DNA of 64,000 nucleotides, taken from an uncultured delta proteobacterium (GTDB lineage: Bacteria > Desulfobacterota > BSN033 > UBA1163). The stretch lies in the NCBI GenBank assembly GCA_963827685.1, contig CAWHBU010000004.1:256001-320000 (forward strand). The letters run 5' to 3'. Under the pieces are notes generated by a model. It had not been told where the DNA came from and ran no database searches. It saw nothing but the letters and a program-made list of their open reading frames with translations. The position numbers and the translations under genes were made by a program. This document shows, piece by piece, positions 20,328 to 31,169 of the stretch; within the stretch, counting starts at the first letter, position 1; the number at the start of each line of letters is the position of its first letter.

Positions 20328-21164
20328 ATGAAATTTTACAAGTACCACGCCCTTGGCAACGATTATGTGGTTCTGGATCCCCGAGACCAGCCACTTGCTC
20401 TTACTTCGGATCAAATCAAAGCCGTCTGTCACCGTCACTATGGCATCGGGTGTGATGGAATTATATTAGGCCCGCTATCATCCACAAAGGCTCCTTTTTT
20501 GCTGCGTATTTTTAATCCGGATGGAAGTGAGGCGGAAAAGAGCGGCAATGGTCTTCGTATCTTCTGTCGCTACCTCTGGGACCGCAAGCTGGTCGGCAGC
20601 CGAACATTCGATATTGAAACAAAGGGTGGCATGGTTCGATGTCTCGTGTTGGACGGTGGGAAACGAGTTCAGGTTGAGATGGGGCGGGTGAGCTTTTGGA
20701 GTAAAGATATTCCCGTTGCTGGAGAGCCCCGTGAGGTGCTGCAGGAGTCGATCACCATTGGCGAGGAGACCTTTCGTTTCAGCGGCGCAACGATAGGCAA
20801 TCCGCATTGCGTCATTCCGGTTCAAGACCTTTCCCCGGAGTTGGCCAAAAAATATGGCCCTCTTTTGGAGGTTCATCCGTTGTTTCCGAATCGCACCAAT
20901 GTACAGTTCCTCAAGGTGCTGGATCGGAACAACATCCGGATCGAGATTTGGGAGCGAGGGGCGGGCTACACGTTGGCTTCGGGCAGCAGTAGCAGTGCGG
21001 CCGCTGCGGTGGCGCGGAAACTGGGTATGTGCGATTCGCAAATTACTGTCCATATGCCAGGCGGGAAGATCAGCATTTCGGTAGATGAAAACTTCGGCAT
21101 CGTCATGGTTGGACCGGTAACACGAATCGCCGAAGGACAATTGGCAGATGAAGTGTTTGAATAA
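20328..21164 (+). CDS. dapF: diaminopimelate epimerase-like protein (Cys-to-Ser at both catalytic sites)
   Basis: KYHALGNDY, NPDGSEAEKSGNG, GNPH, TNVQF, WERGAGYTLASGS. Confidence 0.85.
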   Translation: MKFYKYHALGNDYVVLDPRDQPLALTSDQIKAVCHRHYGIGCDGIILGPLSSTKAPFLLRIFNPDGSEAEKSGNGLRIFCRYLWDRKLVGSRTFDIETKGGMVRCLVLDGGKRVQVEMGRVSFWSKDIPVAGEPREVLQESITIGEETFRFSGATIGNPHCVIPVQDLSPELAKKYGPLLEVHPLFPNRTNVQFLKVLDRNNIRIEIWERGAGYTLASGSSSSAAAAVARKLGMCDSQITVHMPGGKISISVDENFGIVMVGPVTRIAEGQLADEVFE

Positions 21165-21182
21165 GGAATCTGGACGGAAAAA

Positions 21183-21380
21183 GCGGTACGTCCATAAAAA
21201 TATAAGAATCTATCCTTCCTTGAGTTTGAAATGTCTCTTTTCGATGATCCTCGCCGTTCGACTCCTCGGATGATGAGATGGTGGACTCCACCAGGGTAAT
21301 CGATCCTTGCTTTCCGGGGCATGAAAACACACCATCAAACCCTAACCAACATGTCAACTTATAATTCTATGGATGTCCCC
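21183..21380 (-). mobile_element. internally deleted REP-associated (RAYT/Y1) transposase element
   Basis: Encodes MPRKARIDYPGGVHHLIIRGVERR from 21322 on the minus strand; imperfect ~24-bp inverted ends ggtacgtccataaaaatataag / cttataattctatggatgtcccc. Confidence 0.75.
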
Positions 21381-22413: not shown

Positions 22414-23126
22414 ATTACTGTTCCATCACGTGAACTCCAGGGAGGCTTATCGGGCTTGGAATCAGAGTGTTTAAAAACTCGTGCAATGTTAAGAAGTTGT
22501 AAGATTTGGGTTAGTGAATTGATGAAAAAAGTGTTTCTAAGATTTAAAATATGGCCTTATTTCAAGTCTTAGGCATATTGGCATAATTCTATACAGGCAC
22601 GACAGATTGTGCATTTATGAAGCCTTTGCACAAGGCAAAAAAAGCCTACCCCTAAGGTGAGCCTTAAGTGTGTGTCCTCTTTCGGAGAAATCGCCCTCTC
22701 CGGTTAATTAGAAGCCCGCTTTAGCCAAAGAGCTTTTGCATTGAAGGGGTTCCCCATATAGAAGCTCCGAGGACTCCTTACTGAAATTAACAATTCCAAA
22801 AATTCTTAAAAAGGTGTATATTATAATTGCAAACCGTTAACACCATCTTATCTCGTTATTTTAACAAGCAACAATGTCTTCAGGCATATTCACTGGTTCG
22901 AAAGTGTTTTTTGAGGGGCGGGAGAATTATTGAGTTACTATTGCAAGATTTTAGCTTAGAGGATTGGCGATACGATCCATCAGAAAACCCATGGCGGAAT
23001 ATACCTAACGTGTCATGAAATTTATTCATTACTTGGTTATAGCAATCGTCGGCGCATTGATCACTATTTATGGTCGAATCCTTGCGGTTCGCTGGACTGA
23101 ATATTATCGGTTGCGTGCTCTTCTCA

Positions 23127-23236
23127 TTCGGTGTCGTGATGGTTGGGCCGGTAACCCGAATCGCCGAAGGACAATTGGCAGATGAATTGTTTCAATAAAG
23201 CATCTGGACGGAGAAAGGAAAAGCGGGGACGTCCCC
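23127..23236 (+). repeat. copy of the dapF 3' end followed by the palindrome GGGGACGTCCCC
   Basis: Matches ~21093-21190. Confidence 0.85.
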
Positions 23237-24786: not shown

Positions 24787-25170
24787 TGCCGAGGCAGCAC
24801 CGTCCCAAAGACATAAACCACCTCAGGTCTGTTGTCAATGGAAGATGTTGTTGCGAGCGGTCGAAGCGAAGCATGTATGCGGAGGCAATCGCTTTACTGG
24901 AAAGCGGCGCAGTGAATCTTCCTTGATTCATGCCGAAAGCATCGTAAGACTCTTGCATTTGGGTAGAGGAAGACTTCGGTATCGTCATGGTTGGGCCGGT
25001 AACCCGAATCGCCGAAGGAGAATTGGCAGACGAGATGTTTCAATAAGGAATCTGGACGGATGATGATATGGTGGACTCCACCAGGGTAATCGATCCTTGC
25101 TTTCCGGGGCATGAAAACACGCTATCAAACCCCATCCAACATGGCAACTTATGATTTTATGGACGTCCCC
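24787..25170 (+). repeat. collapsed mosaic: 73-bp segment (also at 26249-26321), enoyl-CoA hydratase 3' end, dapF 3' end, RAYT 5' fragment, GGACGTCCCC end
   Basis: 24871-24943 matches 19504-19577; 24956-25060 matches 21073-21178; 25058-25170 matches 21268-21380. Confidence 0.9.
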
Positions 25171-25504
25171 CTATTCGTCTATTCGTACTTCCATTTCAAG
25201 GCGACCGCAGGACTTCATGTGAGAGATACGGATGGATGACTGGATAGAAATCCGAATTAAAGCGAAGCGGTAAAGAATTCTATTGTTGGCCATGAATGAG
25301 CACCTTAGATCAAATGACTAAATTCATCCCCTTAGGTCAAATTGCCCTCTTTGACCCAAAGGAACATTTGTTTCTTGACAAGCCTAACTTTTTTATGGAT
25401 GACCCCATTTTTTCCTGACATTCTTGCATCATTTGTGGTATATCATAATATCAAGATAATTCAGACCACCCGCGAGGGTGGGACTAAAAGCCATGGGAGG
25501 AACC

Positions 25505-26185
25505 ATGAATAAAATGTACGCCTTTTTCACCCAACTCCGCCACTCCCCAATCTCCTGCCTCGCCGCCGTCATCCTGGTCATGTTAGCCTGGAGCAGCCTT
25601 GCGCTCTGCGGCGAGATTCATGATGCGGCCAAGAAAGGTGATTTGGAAAAGGTCAAGGCGCTGCTCAAGGCCAATCCTGATTTGGTTTCCAGCAAAGATA
25701 ACTGGGGCGAGACGCCTTTGTTCCAGGCGGCGAATGGGGGTAAAAAAGATGTGGCAGAATTGCTGTTGGCAAACAAGGCCGATGCCAATGCCAAGTCCAA
25801 ATATGGCTGGACACCTTTGCACTTTGCAGCGTCTAATGGACACAGGGACGTAGCGGCATTGTTGCTGGCGAACAAGGCCGACGTTAATGCCAAGGATACA
25901 ACCGGCTGTACACCTTTACACTATGCATCGGCTATGGGCAAAAAGGACGTAGCGGCATTGCTGCTGGCCAATAGGGCAGAGGTCAGTGCCAAGAACAAAT
26001 ATGGCCAGACGCCTTTGCACTTTGTGGCGACTTCAGGCGAAAAGGACGTGGCGGCATTGCTGCTGGCAAATAAGGCAGAGATCAATGCCAAGGACAAGGA
26101 CGGCAATACGCCTTTATACCAGGCGGCGAAGCGGGGTAAAAAGGACGTGGCGGAATTACTTCGCCAGCACGGCGGCCACGAATAG
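25505..26185 (+). CDS. secreted ankyrin repeat protein
   Basis: Signal-peptide-like N-terminus; about six 33-aa G.TPLH..A..G repeats. Confidence 0.92.
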   Translation: MNKMYAFFTQLRHSPISCLAAVILVMLAWSSLALCGEIHDAAKKGDLEKVKALLKANPDLVSSKDNWGETPLFQAANGGKKDVAELLLANKADANAKSKYGWTPLHFAASNGHRDVAALLLANKADVNAKDTTGCTPLHYASAMGKKDVAALLLANRAEVSAKNKYGQTPLHFVATSGEKDVAALLLANKAEINAKDKDGNTPLYQAAKRGKKDVAELLRQHGGHE

Positions 26186-26639
26186 CTTTAGAGAGAGCAG
26201 CGTAATGAGAAGGCGGACGTCCCCCTATCTTCGTCCCCCTATCTTCCGTGCCGGGACAGCACCGTCCTAAAGACATAAACCACCTCAGGTCTGCTGTCAA
26301 TGGGAGATGCTGTTGCGAGCGATCGTGATTGCGTATGAAAACCAGGGCCCCTCAATCTCCGATCAGGATAAAGGAGGAAGGGTAGCCTGCCCGCCCTGTA
26401 CCATATTAGGTTCAGGGCCTGCCCCGCCCTCGGTCTATTGATAGTGCGGGACCGGGGCCGGCAAGCAGGGGGGATTTGAAAGCATTTTCAGGGGTCAACA
26501 CAGGAGATCATAGACATAAAGCCTCCGATAAACAATCAATTAGAATTGCCGATTACAAAGAGTTAGGTTGGGCTTTCTATATGATCTGAAGATTTACGAT
26601 TGAAATCGAGTATAACGGCTAGGTTTCAGCCGCGCCTGC

Positions 26640-27590
26640 TCACAAGTTCCCTGGCACTGGTGCGAGAAGATCCGCAAGTGTGCTCGGCTTCGGTTCGGCC
26701 AGGCCAACGAAGAAACGATGCCCTTCGTTGCCATCCCAAATGAACGGCGATTCGGTGCCACAGCACCAAAACGCCAGATAAGTGTAGGCGAACCGCGTGG
26801 CAAACTCTGGCGTCTCCCGCAGGACTCGCGCGATGACCGCCCGAACTGCAGCCATACCATCAAACACGACGGACTCCTGCGCAAACTTACCACCCATTCC
26901 CCCCGGCCTACCCAATCGATGCACGTAGCTATCTCTCGCGTCCTTCAATTCCATCAGGCGGCACCATTCGTTGCCCTCACGATCCAGCGAAGCACCGGTT
27001 AGAAATCGGAAGATGAACTGGATGCGTTCAGACACTCCCTGATAGTAGGGTTCTTCGACGGGACTTCCTGACTTGTCCAGCCGCAGACGCACTTCTTGAA
27101 GCAATAATCGCGTTTCTGGCGGCAATGATGCCTTCCGCTGTTCGGCAACAATGCTGGCAAATTCGTTCATCAATGTTTCAAGGGCCCACCAAGCGTGAAT
27201 CACTGCTGATGAATAACACCGAATTGCTCCGAGGGGGTATCTCTTCGGGAAGTTGTTCGCGATCGCGATTCGGTAAAGCTGGACCTCCGCCTTGGCAGCA
27301 TCAAGTGTCCACAGGGGAAGGAATAGTTTCTCCAGGGTCTCGAATCGAATTCCCAAGACCCCGCCGGCCTTTTTGTGAGCCCAGAGGCGCTTCAGCAGAT
27401 CCGGGCTTGGCTCTGCCCATTTGTCGATCATGGCCAGAGTCTCAACTACGAACAGGACTCGGAAGCTGGGGTAGGAGGTCTTGTAGATCTCCATCAAACG
27501 ATCCCATCGTTTGTGATAGGACGGTTCCTCAAAGAAGTTGTCATAGGCGGGATCGAATTCCTCAATCAAGTGAGCCGCTCCAGAAACCAT
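26640..27590 (-). CDS. hypothetical protein with a C-terminal HEPN-like RX4H motif
   Basis: LMELKDARDSYVH; half attC-like tail (gcggctgaaacctagccGTTATAC) after the stop. Confidence 0.6.
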   Translation of the reverse strand: MVSGAAHLIEEFDPAYDNFFEEPSYHKRWDRLMEIYKTSYPSFRVLFVVETLAMIDKWAEPSPDLLKRLWAHKKAGGVLGIRFETLEKLFLPLWTLDAAKAEVQLYRIAIANNFPKRYPLGAIRCYSSAVIHAWWALETLMNEFASIVAEQRKASLPPETRLLLQEVRLRLDKSGSPVEEPYYQGVSERIQFIFRFLTGASLDREGNEWCRLMELKDARDSYVHRLGRPGGMGGKFAQESVVFDGMAAVRAVIARVLRETPEFATRFAYTYLAFWCCGTESPFIWDGNEGHRFFVGLAEPKPSTLADLLAPVPGNL

Positions 27591-27619
27591 CTTTTTTGGT
27601 GCGATTATCTCTTATGCTG

Positions 27620-27805
27620 CTTCTATATTTTCCTAAATCTTAAACCAATAAAGGCTCTCTTCCGGTCAAAAAGGTTTGAACTTTATGCCATTTTCCCAGA
27701 AAAGGTTGTCCTGAACAATATTATATAGAATCCAGTTAATTTCAGAATGAATAATTCTCCGAGGTTCAAGAGTCCCCATTCCCACTTTTCGGTTGTAATA
27801 TACAT
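27620..27805. repeat. AT-rich ~185-bp intergenic module, copy 1
   Basis: Shares cttaaaccaataaaggctctcttc, aaaaggttgtc.tgaacaa.attatatagaat and ggttgtaatataca with 29035-29214. Confidence 0.8.
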
Positions 27806-27894
27806 CTTTTTTGAAGACTTGAGAAGCCAAATTTTTAGAAAGGAGTATTGGGCGGGAGTTTGGTCAGGACGCAAACTGCGTTTACTTAACAAAC

Positions 27895-28359
27895 TTAAGT
27901 ACGTCCCCCGGGAGATTCCCCCGGAAGGATGGCTTCGAGGTCTGTGGCGCCCACTGCACGAGCGCGGCGCTCGAGCAGTTCGGCAACAATTTCGAGCGGC
28001 TCAAACCATTCGTCAGGACTGACAGACGGCAGTTTTTCGCCAAGGTTTTCGAGCATTGAGCGCATTGCCTGAAACTCGGTGTCGCTTGGCTCGTAGCGCG
28101 CATGATGAGCACATTTATTGCGCATCGTGTTCACGAAGCGCAACGCGTCGGCGAGTTTCGGTTCAATGACTGCTAGCGCCTCGCAAAGAGCCACGAGCAT
28201 CTGAAAGCCCAAAGTCCTATTTCGGAACAAAGCGTCGGGATTCGGTAGCTTGGCGAACAGGCTTCGGACTAAGAGATGCTCAAGCCAGAGATGGCTAGAG
28301 ATAACGAAAGACTTGCCAATGGTTTGACCGTCAACGTAGCGAAGGAGATTGCTCTCCAT
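27895..28359 (-). CDS. HEPN-like protein
   Basis: HLWLE...MRNKCAH RX4H motif; 3' end runs into the ACGTCCCC junction. Confidence 0.6.
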   Translation of the reverse strand: MESNLLRYVDGQTIGKSFVISSHLWLEHLLVRSLFAKLPNPDALFRNRTLGFQMLVALCEALAVIEPKLADALRFVNTMRNKCAHHARYEPSDTEFQAMRSMLENLGEKLPSVSPDEWFEPLEIVAELLERRARAVGATDLEAILPGESPGGRT

Positions 28360-28398
28360 CGAACAGACCCCTCCTGTATCGAAACGCTCGTTCTTGCC

Positions 28399-28480
28399 GC
28401 TTAACGCTACTCCTCACGCGTTGCAGTGAGGCCGTCCGCGGCCCCACTACAATCGCGTGCAGGAGGCTGTCCGGTTGATC
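28399..28480 (-). other. attC-like site
   Basis: Minus strand: GATCAAC..ctcctgcacgcg..tgtagtggggcc / ggcctcactgca..cgcgtgaggag..GTTAAGC. Confidence 0.7.
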
Positions 28481-28991
28481 CTTCACGAGTGTCGAGAATG
28501 AGTTCCTTCGTCCACCCAGGAAGTGTTCCATGTTTCGGATGGCGGTTCAGTTTCCATAGGAACCCGTACACGCTGCCAACGGGCAGGACGAAGTGGGTTT
28601 GAAGTAGGCTACTGGTGTTGGGCTCGAGAAGGAACTCCTCTAGTTCTTTATAGGGTTGAGTCACGTATACAGGGTTGTGCAGATCGGCTTGCAGAGAGAG
28701 TGGACCCTCACGGAGGTCGCCGGGGATTCTGTAAACTGAAACGTTAGAGGTCTTGGTGTCGAGGTGGACGGGGAGCGGGCTGTGATTGTTCCATGTTGCA
28801 CTGAGTGTCACTAGCACACGCCCATCGCAAATAGGGATCGTTTCTGCCGACAACTTACCGTCGATAGATGGCATGTCCTTCTTCGAGCGGAGGTGTTCCG
28901 CGAAGAGCTTGTTGAGGAGAACCCAGAGTCCATACACTAGAACCGCGACGGTGGGGACCCACTCGCGGAGAAAAGTGAGCACTGCTTTCAC
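28407..28991 (-). CDS. hypothetical protein with one N-terminal TM helix
   Basis: Hydrophobic segment near residues 10-30; C-terminus reads through the attC-like site. Confidence 0.6.
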   Translation of the reverse strand: MKAVLTFLREWVPTVAVLVYGLWVLLNKLFAEHLRSKKDMPSIDGKLSAETIPICDGRVLVTLSATWNNHSPLPVHLDTKTSNVSVYRIPGDLREGPLSLQADLHNPVYVTQPYKELEEFLLEPNTSSLLQTHFVLPVGSVYGFLWKLNRHPKHGTLPGWTKELILDTREGSTGQPPARDCSGAADGLTATREE

Positions 28992-29034
28992 CTTCTATAT
29001 CTCTTTCTCCCAACCGAACTTATTTTTTAGCTCG

Positions 29035-29214
29035 TTCTATATTTTTATTAAACCTTAAACCAATAAAGGCTCTCTTCTGCTCAAAAGGTCGAGATTTCAT
29101 AGCATTTTTCCGCAAAAGGTTGTCTTGAACAACATTATATAGAATTGACTTAATTTTAGAATGAATTATTCACAGGGGCAGACCCACATTGTTCATTTAT
29201 GGTTGTAATATACA
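29035..29214. repeat. AT-rich ~180-bp intergenic module, copy 2
   Basis: See 27620-27805. Confidence 0.8.
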
Positions 29215-29443
29215 CGTTTTTCTAAAATAAGGGAAGTGAAGAGTACCGGAATGACTTTTAAAAAAGATAGGTGAAGGTTCCAGCGACTAATGTTCATTTT
29301 GATGTAAATCTCGAAGTACTGCGGTCAGCAAGGTTTTGGACGACGAGGATAGACAAATCTAATAATTCAAGACCTGATCCCAAGGATTATCCCGAAGCTT
29401 GCAGTCCATGAAGGGTTAAGGATCACATTGCTCACATTTGTTA

Positions 29444-30157
29444 TTATAGCAGGGCATCATTAATCATGTTCACCAGCACATCATCTGCCATCATGGTAGA
29501 GAAGCTGGGGTTAGCGCCCGATGCATGTTGGATTGGTAACACATTGACATTCAGATTACCGATGATGAGACGTGGAAGCACACGCTTCTCGACAATGCAT
29601 TTCAAATGCTCAGTGAGCGATTTGGGATAATTCATTTCCAGATAGTAATCATAGAAAGCATCCCGGCTTGTTTTGCCCATAAGTAATAGCAATCGGGGTC
29701 TGATAATCTTAATCTCATCAACGAGAAAGCGACCTTGCTGACAGTTCCGAATCTCGAAAGGGGTGGGAGTACGATCCCCGCTTTTGTTCTGATCTTTGCC
29801 AGGGTAGCACTGTGCAATTTCAGTATTGTAGACGGAGAAGAAACCATATCTTCGGGCTGGGACACGCGAACCTCCTTCTAAAATGAGATTGCGAGGAGGA
29901 AAAACTGTTCTCTGGAATCGATTCAAGAAACCCTCCAGACGATTGCCTGTGGTACCAAGTCTGCCATCTGGTGTGAAGAAATTCACCCCCGTCTTCCGGA
30001 GCTGGTTTGCCGCGAGGGCTTGCGAAATGACGAACACATCCGCATCAATGTCCACCGCGTCAATTCGTCGTAGAGCCTTCTGCTTGTCCATCTGTGGGCA
30101 GATATGACAAGAATGGATATTGAAGTAAAGCTGCCTGAGTGCTTTATCTTTTGTCAT
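29444..30157 (-). CDS. uracil-DNA glycosylase superfamily protein (Fe-S type, divergent)
   Basis: CHIC, VISQA, TEIAQCYP...DRTPT..EI.NC, EIKIIRPRLLLLMG, QHAS. Confidence 0.75.
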   Translation of the reverse strand: MTKDKALRQLYFNIHSCHICPQMDKQKALRRIDAVDIDADVFVISQALAANQLRKTGVNFFTPDGRLGTTGNRLEGFLNRFQRTVFPPRNLILEGGSRVPARRYGFFSVYNTEIAQCYPGKDQNKSGDRTPTPFEIRNCQQGRFLVDEIKIIRPRLLLLMGKTSRDAFYDYYLEMNYPKSLTEHLKCIVEKRVLPRLIIGNLNVNVLPIQHASGANPSFSTMMADDVLVNMINDALL

Positions 30158-30579
30158 ATCGTATGTCCTAGCCCTCTGGCAATATCGCGAGCAACACGTG
30201 ACTTGTTGGGCAGTCCCATGGGTTTTGAGTTGGTGTAGTCGTATCCCTCGTCAAATTGGTCTGCTGTGAGGTCGATGACTTCACCGTTTTTGTGCTTGAA
30301 GAACCAGTGAGATCCCGACTCATCCTTCTTCCGATGGACCTTGAACCCATCTGGCATCAATTCCATTCGATAGACAGCTTCTGTCACACGGTGACAATAA
30401 CCTGTAGTGGGAACGCCTTTTAGATTCACTTTCCTTTTCCATTGTTCAACAATATCGGGATCATTCAGGTGAACAGGCGGGCCGATTTCCAAGAGTACTT
30501 TGCGTAAAGATTCTCTGCTGATACCAACCCTTTGAAACATCGTGTCAATCTCTTCGTTGGTGAATTTGATCTTGAGCAT
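30154..30579 (-). CDS. YunG-like / papain-fold Cys-His-Asp protein
   Basis: GYCHRVTE...SHWF...VIDLTADQF; ATGA overlap with the UDG-like gene. Confidence 0.6.
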   Translation of the reverse strand: MLKIKFTNEEIDTMFQRVGISRESLRKVLLEIGPPVHLNDPDIVEQWKRKVNLKGVPTTGYCHRVTEAVYRMELMPDGFKVHRKKDESGSHWFFKHKNGEVIDLTADQFDEGYDYTNSKPMGLPNKSRVARDIARGLGHTI

Positions 30580-30663
30580 AAGAAATCCTCCGGGGGTGAC
30601 ATTACGGAGAGAGTTTTGAGAAAGACTCCAGTCCTAATAATGTCCCTGCAAGTTGCAAGTTTC

Positions 30664-30700
30664 GCATAACTCGTTCACATCCGAACTTATCCGCATTGGT
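30664..30700 (-). other. possible attI-like site heading the minus-strand array
   Basis: Minus strand gcggataagttcggatgtgaacgaGTTATGC upstream of the first gene; no intI present. Confidence 0.35.
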
Positions 30701-31169
30701 TCGTTTATCCCCTGAAAAATGGACGCAGAAGCGAGGTTTGGATATACTCCCCAAGTGGTGGTATAGACGAACTGGCACGGATTTAGCACCTAAGGATTAC
30801 TGGTTGGAGTATACACCTTTTTCTAAAATTACGGAACAAAAAGTTACAAGGAAGAAGGCGAAGAATCCTACCTCCCCTTCCCTATATACACCTCTGAATG
30901 CCTCTCATGCCACTCCCAATTCTTTATCCACCTACGCAGAACACGACGGGTTTTACCCGTGGACGCCGTCGGCCATAGCCTATGGCGTCGGACGATGAAT
31001 GCGTAAGTTGTCGTTGAAACATTCATGGGCCAAAGCATTAATGCTTCGGTGGATTCCGCCGCTGGTGGATAACCCTGCGAAGCCTTGGCACTTGCGCGTA
31101 GAAGCGCTACGGCGCCCAGGTGCGTAGGAGGGTATGTCAAAGAGGTACCACGGGCTTTGCCCGTAGGGC

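Follow-up and report, generated by a model that had tools for sequence, protein, structure and literature searches.

An overlapping gene pair and its two products

The window analysed here is a stretch of 64,000 nucleotides (nt) from an uncultured delta proteobacterium (GenBank assembly GCA_963827685.1, contig CAWHBU010000004.1, positions 256,001 to 320,000 of the forward strand), and it carries on its minus strand two overlapping open reading frames (ORFs). The first gene of the operon in this genome, geneA (30154–30579), encodes a YunG-family protein of 141 amino acids (aa), and geneB (29444–30157) encodes a 237-aa divergent iron-sulfur (Fe-S) glycosylase of the uracil-DNA glycosylase (UDG) superfamily. 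A first-pass annotation of this DNA had described an ATGA overlap between them, and direct reading of the sequence bears this out: at 30154–30157 on the minus strand (tcat on the plus strand) the ATG of geneB lies over the TGA of geneA, a predicted translational coupling of the two genes. Shine-Dalgarno-like sequences precede both genes on the same strand, GGAGGA (30586–30591) 6 nt 5′ of the geneA ATG and AGGA (30166–30169) 8 nt 5′ of the geneB ATG, the latter within geneA. All of the protein motifs quoted in that annotation are likewise present, namely TTGYCHRV, SHWFFK and IDLTADQFD in geneA, and in geneB the four cysteines (C17 and C20 in HSCHIC, C117 and C139) together with the altered glycosylase motifs VISQALAAN and PIQHASGAN.

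GeneB has the UDG alpha/beta fold, scores above the cut-off of the Pfam UDG family PF03167 (39.6 bits, cut-off 24.3, E = 6.8e-10) and finds its best sequence and structure matches among the family-4 UDGs, while the NCBIfam model for family 4 (TIGR00758) gives it 28.3 bits, below a cut-off of 125.3. Within the geneB clade C117 and C139 are invariant and C17 and C20 are at least 90% conserved, and a profile-to-PDB alignment places C117 and C139 with two cysteines of 4zbx; the four residues fit those of the family-4 4Fe-4S cluster, and such a cluster is predicted for geneB. The motifs that define family 4 have changed. Following strand 1 the clade has S45-Q46-A47-L48-A49, with S45, Q46 and L48 invariant, instead of motif A (GE[AG]PG) with its catalytic Glu. 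We take the residues of the two motifs to correspond by their position after strand 1 and by the family-4 sequences as we know them, and a Gln appears to occupy the site of the catalytic Glu in geneB. In the profile-to-PDB alignment VYNTEIAQC of geneB sits opposite VFITNVVKC of the S. tokodaii UDG, and E113 is therefore the replacement of the base-reading Asn of family 4 (N82 in the S. tokodaii enzyme), the segment N111-T112-E113 being at least 90% conserved in the clade. The leaving-group histidine and the stacking Phe region are retained, H211 (in PIQHASGAN) aligning with the motif-B histidine within HAS and not HPS. GeneB thus differs from family-4 UdgA in having SQALA for GE[AG]PG, Glu for the base-reading Asn and HAS for HPS, and has the appearance of an active Fe-S glycosylase whose specificity pocket has been remodelled. 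Both the motif conservation and the PDB alignment support the earlier description of geneB as a divergent Fe-S UDG with altered motifs. We see no equivalent of the UdgX crosslinking loop in geneB, judging by the motif that we take to mark that loop. In human UNG, changing the equivalent Asn to Asp gives cytosine-excising activity, and in light of this behaviour a cytosine-type substrate would fit geneB. Relatives of geneB form 141 clusters (90% identity) at E ≤0.001 among 745 candidates; the best 120 of the 141 are 45–93% identical to geneB and nearly all metagenomic, and the clade is distributed across bacteria and archaea.

Against the Pfam family YunG (PF24585) geneA reaches 19.6 bits, under the cut-off of 27. 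Several orthologous partners of the same glycosylase clade pass this cut-off with 37.4 to 43.1 bits (L006, L008, L016/L018 and L020), and the family assignment is therefore sound. The ESM Atlas clusters nearest to geneA carry PF24585 and Phage_YunG-like (PF24591) and are mostly viral (Uroviricota), and a profile built from geneA relatives matches 2,067 cluster representatives at E ≤0.001 (clusters at 50% identity). Cys62, His91, Asp103 and Thr105 are invariant in 44 aligned sequences, in an alignment with a mean column identity of 28%. The AF2 model of geneA (pLDDT 96.2) has Cys62 opening a helix, H91 within strand 89–95 and D103 in a short extended stretch just after it; the order Cys, His, Asp and the invariance of these residues are those of papain/transglutaminase-like enzymes. 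Structural matches to geneA are weak and almost all are papain/transglutaminase-like Cys-His-Asp hydrolases or transferases, with ASCH proteins absent among them; Foldseek against the PDB and a profile search of PDB sequences returned no match, matches in BFVD are uncharacterised viral proteins only, and a word-index search gave six matches, one of which is geneA itself.

Among 37 longer profile-matched proteins the Pfam fusion partners are UDG, ADP-ribosylglycohydrolase, 5′-nucleotidase, GNAT (one with NUDIX), Mom (twice), ADP-ribosyltransferase, HNH, GIY-YIG and SWIM, and the YunG domain is also found in giant proteins of 2,500 to 4,700 aa. Taken together, these domain architectures suggest that YunG associates with DNA- and nucleotide-modifying or -cleaving enzymes. 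Our literature search found no published function for YunG, full-text matches to the gene name being the surname Yung, and the available text of a paper on polyvalent proteins (PMC5512222) does not mention YunG.

Conservation of the pairing and its viral relatives

We examined the glycosylase clade at 82 loci (80 metagenomic, one viral and one from a genome), which include some near-duplicates (L021 = L086, L030/L032, L041/L042, L044/L045, L016/L018, L031/L033 and L063–65). All six frames were scanned with a hidden Markov model of geneA relatives, and a locus counted as unpaired if 300 nt or more 3′ of the glycosylase gene were available and no YunG ORF was found there. A YunG ORF lies directly 3′ of the glycosylase gene on the same strand in 48 of the 71 testable loci and is missing from 23, the remaining 11 of the 82 being too short to judge. 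The overlap in the paired loci is 4 nt (31 loci), 8 nt (16) or 11 nt (1), and the pairing is far above chance. The first-pass annotation had named a failure of the two genes to co-occur elsewhere as evidence against its proposal; they do co-occur, and these counts and overlaps support a real, widely conserved and translationally coupled pair.

The order seen in the window, YunG and then UDG, was found in none of the examined loci. In a quick tree (from which L086 (= L021), UDG ORFs under 205 aa and rows with E >1e-60 were excluded) the window glycosylase groups most closely with L014, L015 and L022, all of the usual order, in a placement without strong support. As the window order is the reverse of the usual one, the linkage has survived rearrangement. 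A 400-aa protein, P0133, joins a UDG of the geneB clade (38% identity to geneB) to YunG in one chain. The sole locus from genome contigs, L001 of a Methanoregulaceae archaeon, has both genes fragmented and was counted as paired and otherwise unused. The respective genes of the two closest relatives (P0001/P0122 and P0002/P0123) probably share contigs. A complex prediction for geneB with geneA (alignments A1 and A3) gave a score of 0.00 and a mark of 0.32, which is uninformative either way.

Given that its best sequence and structure matches are family-4 UDGs, geneB could be an ordinary uracil-DNA glycosylase that happens to stand beside an unrelated small gene. The co-occurrence counts contradict this, the genes being paired at 48 of 71 testable loci, known in both orders and fused in one protein, and geneB lacks the family-4 motifs and falls short of the NCBIfam cut-off (28.3 against 125.3 bits), so that we regard this explanation as very improbable.

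Some paired loci carry a third gene. An NT5C deoxynucleotidase gene is directly 5′ of the pair in 7 of 19 paired loci, which belong to one clade (L028, L047, L048, L050, L053, L055 and L059), and this NT5C-UDG-YunG form is often beside WG-repeat or DUF2779 proteins. An ADP-ribosylglycohydrolase gene lies 3′ of the pair in L006, and by eye the ORF after the pair in L001 looks like another. The NT5C genes, along with the fusions of YunG to 5′-nucleotidase and to NUDIX, would be expected if the two proteins acted on free modified nucleotides or nucleosides in a pool or salvage pathway and not on DNA. NT5C is missing, however, from the window and from the majority of loci, and geneB has a full UDG fold and a predicted Fe-S cluster, along with the stacking and histidine elements of a DNA glycosylase. 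Action on free nucleotides is not known for any UDG-superfamily enzyme, and we consider such a role quite unlikely.

Most loci of the glycosylase clade that lack YunG look viral, one of them being a 141-kb IMG/VR contig, and other unpaired contigs carry tail-fibre, HNH/homing endonuclease, D5-like and AdoMet-decarboxylase PHROGs together with many orphan genes. The clade does without YunG at 23 testable loci, many of them virus-like; YunG is thus not obligatory, and viruses use the glycosylase too. Clade members without YunG were seen on the virus-like contigs L021 (= L086), L029, L030, L032, L036 and L069, and also on L044, L045 and L052, on L051 and on L057. In one unpaired group a conserved pair of genes, for proteins of ~100 aa and 199 aa that look structural by eye, comes after the glycosylase gene.

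YunG itself is present in the genomes of phiCbK-like phages, cyanophages and megaphages. It directly abuts a DruA-domain gene (PF14236, an assignment from the ESM Atlas) in 12 of 27 viral YunG loci, in both gene orders, and on the sequence evidence this is a second conserved partnership of YunG; our literature search on DruA/DUF4338 found no function for DruA. DruA-adjacent loci are on the IMG/VR contigs L094–L101, L108, L114, L115, L119 and L120, and the surroundings of YunG-DruA, by eye, are T4-like replication and recombination modules (gp46/47-, UvsW-, UvsX- and gp55-like). In Synechococcus phage S-CAM9 (L093, KU686205.1 111252–112270) a YunG-like gene is directly 3′ of a DenV-type pyrimidine-dimer glycosylase gene (Pfam Pyr_excise), an adjacency also seen in S-PRM1 and S-8S53/55/56. 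We give this little weight as a link between a glycosylase product and YunG, since 505 phage records hold a DenV-like gene and only a few related cyanophages show the adjacency, which may stem from a single insertion event. The gp296 protein of Caulobacter phage phiCbK (L092, NC_019405.1 94026–94700) is a YunG domain fused to a C-terminal helix-turn-helix (Mor/HTH_23-like); its gene, kept across phiCbK-like jumbo phages, directly follows those for DNA polymerase I and a cytosine methyltransferase and is itself followed by one for an RNase T-like exonuclease.

It is conceivable that the pair has a viral or mobile-element function on its island, such as counter-defence or the upkeep or editing of the element's own modified DNA, and is not part of host immunity. 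Clade members without YunG on virus-like contigs (including the 141-kb one) and the mostly viral occurrence of YunG speak for such a function; the YunG-Mom fusions, the DruA-domain neighbours and, in L028, an integrase and an excisionase-like helix-turn-helix gene near the pair are in keeping with it. Against this, no phage structural or replication genes were found within ~3.5 kb of the pair in the 19 paired loci or in the window, which also has no integrase; neither the paired form nor any other member of the glycosylase clade was found in the 27 viral YunG loci, and the clade was found in none of 50,697 deposited phage records. On this balance we judge a mobile-element function to be improbable.

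Accessory status and genomic neighbourhood

The source genome holds two other PF03167 genes with better scores (136.9 and 101.6 bits), so geneB is an extra UDG copy. Neither geneA nor geneB was found in 40 relatives, 14 of them congeners, and the geneB clade was found in one of 401 sampled genomes of the phylum, that one being the source genome. A congener (G010, locus L087) shares the flanks, with dapF, a CoA-ligase-like gene and an SDR gene, and has ~10 kb of other genes at this place, encoding an M23 peptidase, a metallo-beta-lactamase, a Hypoth_Ymh HEPN protein, a collagen/NHL protein and a PilZ protein. Comparing the window with this locus by blastn delimits a strain-variable segment at ~26561–30810 that contains the geneA-geneB pair and two more minus-strand units. 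Because geneB is an extra copy, the pair is missing from relatives and the clade is in a single genome of 401, the pair is a sporadic, horizontally acquired accessory element in a variable hot spot. One of the two canonical UDG-family genes of the genome (G000, C2:670059–670499) has a tyrosine recombinase gene (C2:664941) within a few kb and, ~20 kb away, a partial copy (C2:689609) of a repeat element described below.

This distribution bears on whether the pair serves the repair or detoxification of the cell's own DNA, with YunG stripping an adduct (ADP-ribosyl-derived or acyl, from a toxin or from chemistry) and the glycosylase removing the damaged base for base-excision repair, without an anti-phage role. 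YunG is fused to or beside ADP-ribosyltransferase, ADP-ribosylglycohydrolase and NUDIX domains, genes for DinB-type polymerases flank the pair in L014 (with LexA) and L018, several paired loci are among housekeeping genes, and the cyanophage YunG gene adjoins a DenV-type repair glycosylase, all of which would suit such a task. Presence in only one of 401 genomes would be odd for a general repair need, though, and the source genome already has its two canonical UDG-family genes. The Asn-to-Glu change in the pocket, moreover, matches a defence glycosylase, and the neighbours differ between loci and are often defence or mobile-element genes. Repair of self DNA is therefore, in our view, an unlikely explanation, if one to be taken seriously.

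Strong defence-type neighbours were found in ~6 of 17 other paired loci, comprising a ZorD-like SNF2-Mrr protein, TIR, two SoFic, ZacC with Mrr, a Mokosh-like helicase and WYL. Of the neighbourhood analysis that the first-pass annotation had suggested, conserved pairing (48 of 71) came out clearly, and strong defence neighbours are limited to these ~6 loci.

That annotation had also placed the pair at the head of a cassette-like array with HEPN-motif genes. In the window, a 194-aa protein with an N-terminus that is hydrophobic by eye is encoded at 28407–28991, and the product of the gene next downstream (27895–28359), of 154 aa, has an Rx4H motif and matches Abi_2/AbiD weakly (E = 0.0053); the gene at 26640–27590 encodes a 316-aa protein that has an Rx4H motif but matches no family, all three genes being on the minus strand. 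From these sequence features, the 194-/154-aa unit and the 316-aa gene may be HEPN-type abortive-infection genes, the HEPN assignment coming from motif and weak match for the 154-aa protein and from the motif alone for the 316-aa protein. An intergenic element of ~200 nt is found upstream of each of these two minus-strand units (27628–27830 and 29043–29235), and this part of the array description stands. The YunG-UDG unit has only ~40 nt of the element, a partial copy at 30796–30836 that lies 5′ of geneA on the border of the variable segment. Searched against the genome by blastn, the ~200-nt element gave 12 matches, mostly partial and including the query; it may serve the units as a common promoter or regulatory region, or be a small mobile repeat. 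An integron cassette array was considered and rejected: the window has no integrase (PF00589), the nearest match being ~83 kb away, and the repeat elements fold no better than shuffled sequences (z of 0.3 to 0.9, one at –0.4) and are not attC-like.

Three copies of the dapF 3′ end are found in the window (21073–21178, 23107–23212 and 24955–25060, at 77–90% identity), and further duplications of ~100 nt pair 21267–21380 with 25057–25170 and 24787–24863 with 26249–26325; these copies and duplicated segments look like scars of repeated insertions beside dapF. The stretch at 21.2–23.1 kb is AT-rich with small ORFs only. A plus-strand gene at 25478–26185 encodes an ankyrin-repeat protein, its N-terminus hydrophobic by eye, and contains 99-nt tandem units (25693–26187); this ankyrin-repeat stretch is missing at the equivalent place in a congener.

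Relation to defence glycosylases and a possible mode of action

Glycosylases that act in defence are a recent discovery, with Brig1 reported in 2024 and followed, in 2025–26 preprints, by Brig2, Brig3-BapA and the Dag enzymes. As the available text on Brig1 describes it (PMC11078745), its closest structural homologue is 4ZBY, its E147 occupies the site of the family-4 N82 with N145 two residues earlier, both E147A and E147Q abolish immunity, and Brig1 and its N. zhouii homologue adjoin an ADP-ribosylglycohydrolase gene. By that description geneB shares several properties with Brig1: membership of the UDG superfamily with the S. tokodaii family-4 UDG (4ZBY/4ZBX) as the closest solved relative, a Glu in an N-x-E where family 4 has its base-reading Asn (E113 for E147, a match at motif level), an ADP-ribosylglycohydrolase near some members of each, and a sporadic, island-like distribution. 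The comparison with Brig1 in the first-pass annotation was thus apt, since geneB carries the N-x-E whose Glu is essential in Brig1. The two also differ. Judged from the residue numbers in the available text, geneB has ~26 extra residues between the stacking Phe and N-x-E, and it keeps the four Fe-S cysteines; Brig1 acts alone, its operon mates being described there as hypothetical proteins, whereas geneB has a YunG partner. No Brig-named entry was among the PDB matches of geneB.

The closest precedent for two genes is Brig3 with BapA. In the part of the preprint available (bioRxiv 10.64898/2026.02.25.707755), the genes brig3 and bapA share an operon in which they overlap, and BapA, an ASCH-fold glucosyl hydrolase using Asp, strips glucose from glucosyl-5-hydroxymethylcytosine to give the Brig3 substrate; the two proteins form no stable complex, and the target of the accessory enzyme is the base modification, not the glycosylase. 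As far as this account goes, the pair studied here resembles Brig3-BapA in that the gene of a UDG-superfamily glycosylase overlaps that of a small accessory enzyme in one operon, but the partner is a YunG-family Cys-His-Asp protein and not an ASCH-fold glucosyl hydrolase, and the word YunG is absent from that preprint. UDG-like defence proteins of integrons, including Brig2, are presented in the available text of a further preprint (bioRxiv 10.1101/2025.10.29.685425) as single cassette genes, one of which defends against phages with hypermodified thymidine. They are, on that description, like geneB in their divergent UDG fold and their location in variable mobile regions; unlike them, geneB is paired with YunG, in a window with neither an integrase nor attC-like folding. 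As far as our literature search goes, a pairing of a glycosylase with YunG is undescribed.

We favour, with moderate confidence, the explanation that geneA and geneB form a Brig-type two-enzyme base-excision module, probably directed against invading (phage) DNA with modified pyrimidines, most likely cytosine derivatives. In such a module geneA, a putative thiol hydrolase or acyl-transfer enzyme, would trim or alter the decoration of a base, for instance an amide- or ester-linked group, and by analogy with the action of BapA for Brig3 this change would let the glycosylase act. GeneB would then flip out and excise the non-canonical base, a modified pyrimidine, and the resulting abasic sites would stop the invader from replicating. 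Where a third gene is present (NT5C or ADP-ribosylglycohydrolase), it could direct the same attack at the nucleotide pool or at sugar decorations as well.

The proposal in the first-pass annotation, a two-gene system acting on modified DNA, draws support from the conserved pairing, the N-x-E motif and the Brig3-BapA precedent, and a number of findings weigh against it and against our own version of it. The PADLOC check that the annotation had called for came back negative: in PADLOC-DB 2.0 no model was matched by geneA, by geneB or by their homologues in L006 and L050. Strong defence neighbours accompany only the ~6 of 17 paired loci named above, other paired loci are among housekeeping genes (pyrF, ATP synthase, holA), and the neighbours of the pair in the window are only weakly HEPN-like. 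Base composition gives no clear sign of foreign origin for the pair, its GC content of 0.46–0.47 and its third-position GC of 0.50 being within ~1 standard deviation of the long ORFs of the window. YunG is absent at 23 testable loci of the glycosylase clade, many of them virus-like, and the mainly viral character of the relatives of YunG suits a function in mobile elements no less than one in the host. The P0133 fusion is known from one cluster representative and may result from a sequencing frameshift. Lastly, the likeness of geneB to Brig1, Brig2 and Brig3 is set by published descriptions and not by sequence alignment.

A wider proposal, which we put forward more tentatively and as the less likely of the two, is that YunG is an unrecognised class of thiol (Cys-His-Asp) enzymes on modified DNA bases that is used by phages and hosts alike. 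Phage YunG proteins, together with base modifiers (Mom, DruA-domain proteins, GNATs and ADP-ribosyltransferases), might build or tune hypermodifications, and cellular YunG with a Brig-like Fe-S glycosylase might constitute a new two-enzyme immunity in which the decoration is stripped and the base then excised, with nucleotidase or glycohydrolase add-ons as options.

Defence glycosylases and one operon of a glycosylase with an accessory enzyme are already known; what is new here is the YunG partner, the size and breadth of the Fe-S clade and the link to a large, mostly viral family. If our favoured explanation is correct, a populous clade (141 clusters at 90% identity and E ≤0.001, the best 120 of them at least 45% identical to geneB) would join the defence glycosylases and bring with it an accessory enzyme of a second, unrelated type. 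For the mapping of DNA modifications, glycosylases of new specificity towards modified C or T, and the enzymes that trim the decorations, would be useful reagents. For the YunG family, with its ~2,000 clusters at 50% identity and its frequent occurrence in phages, it would provide the first functional handle.

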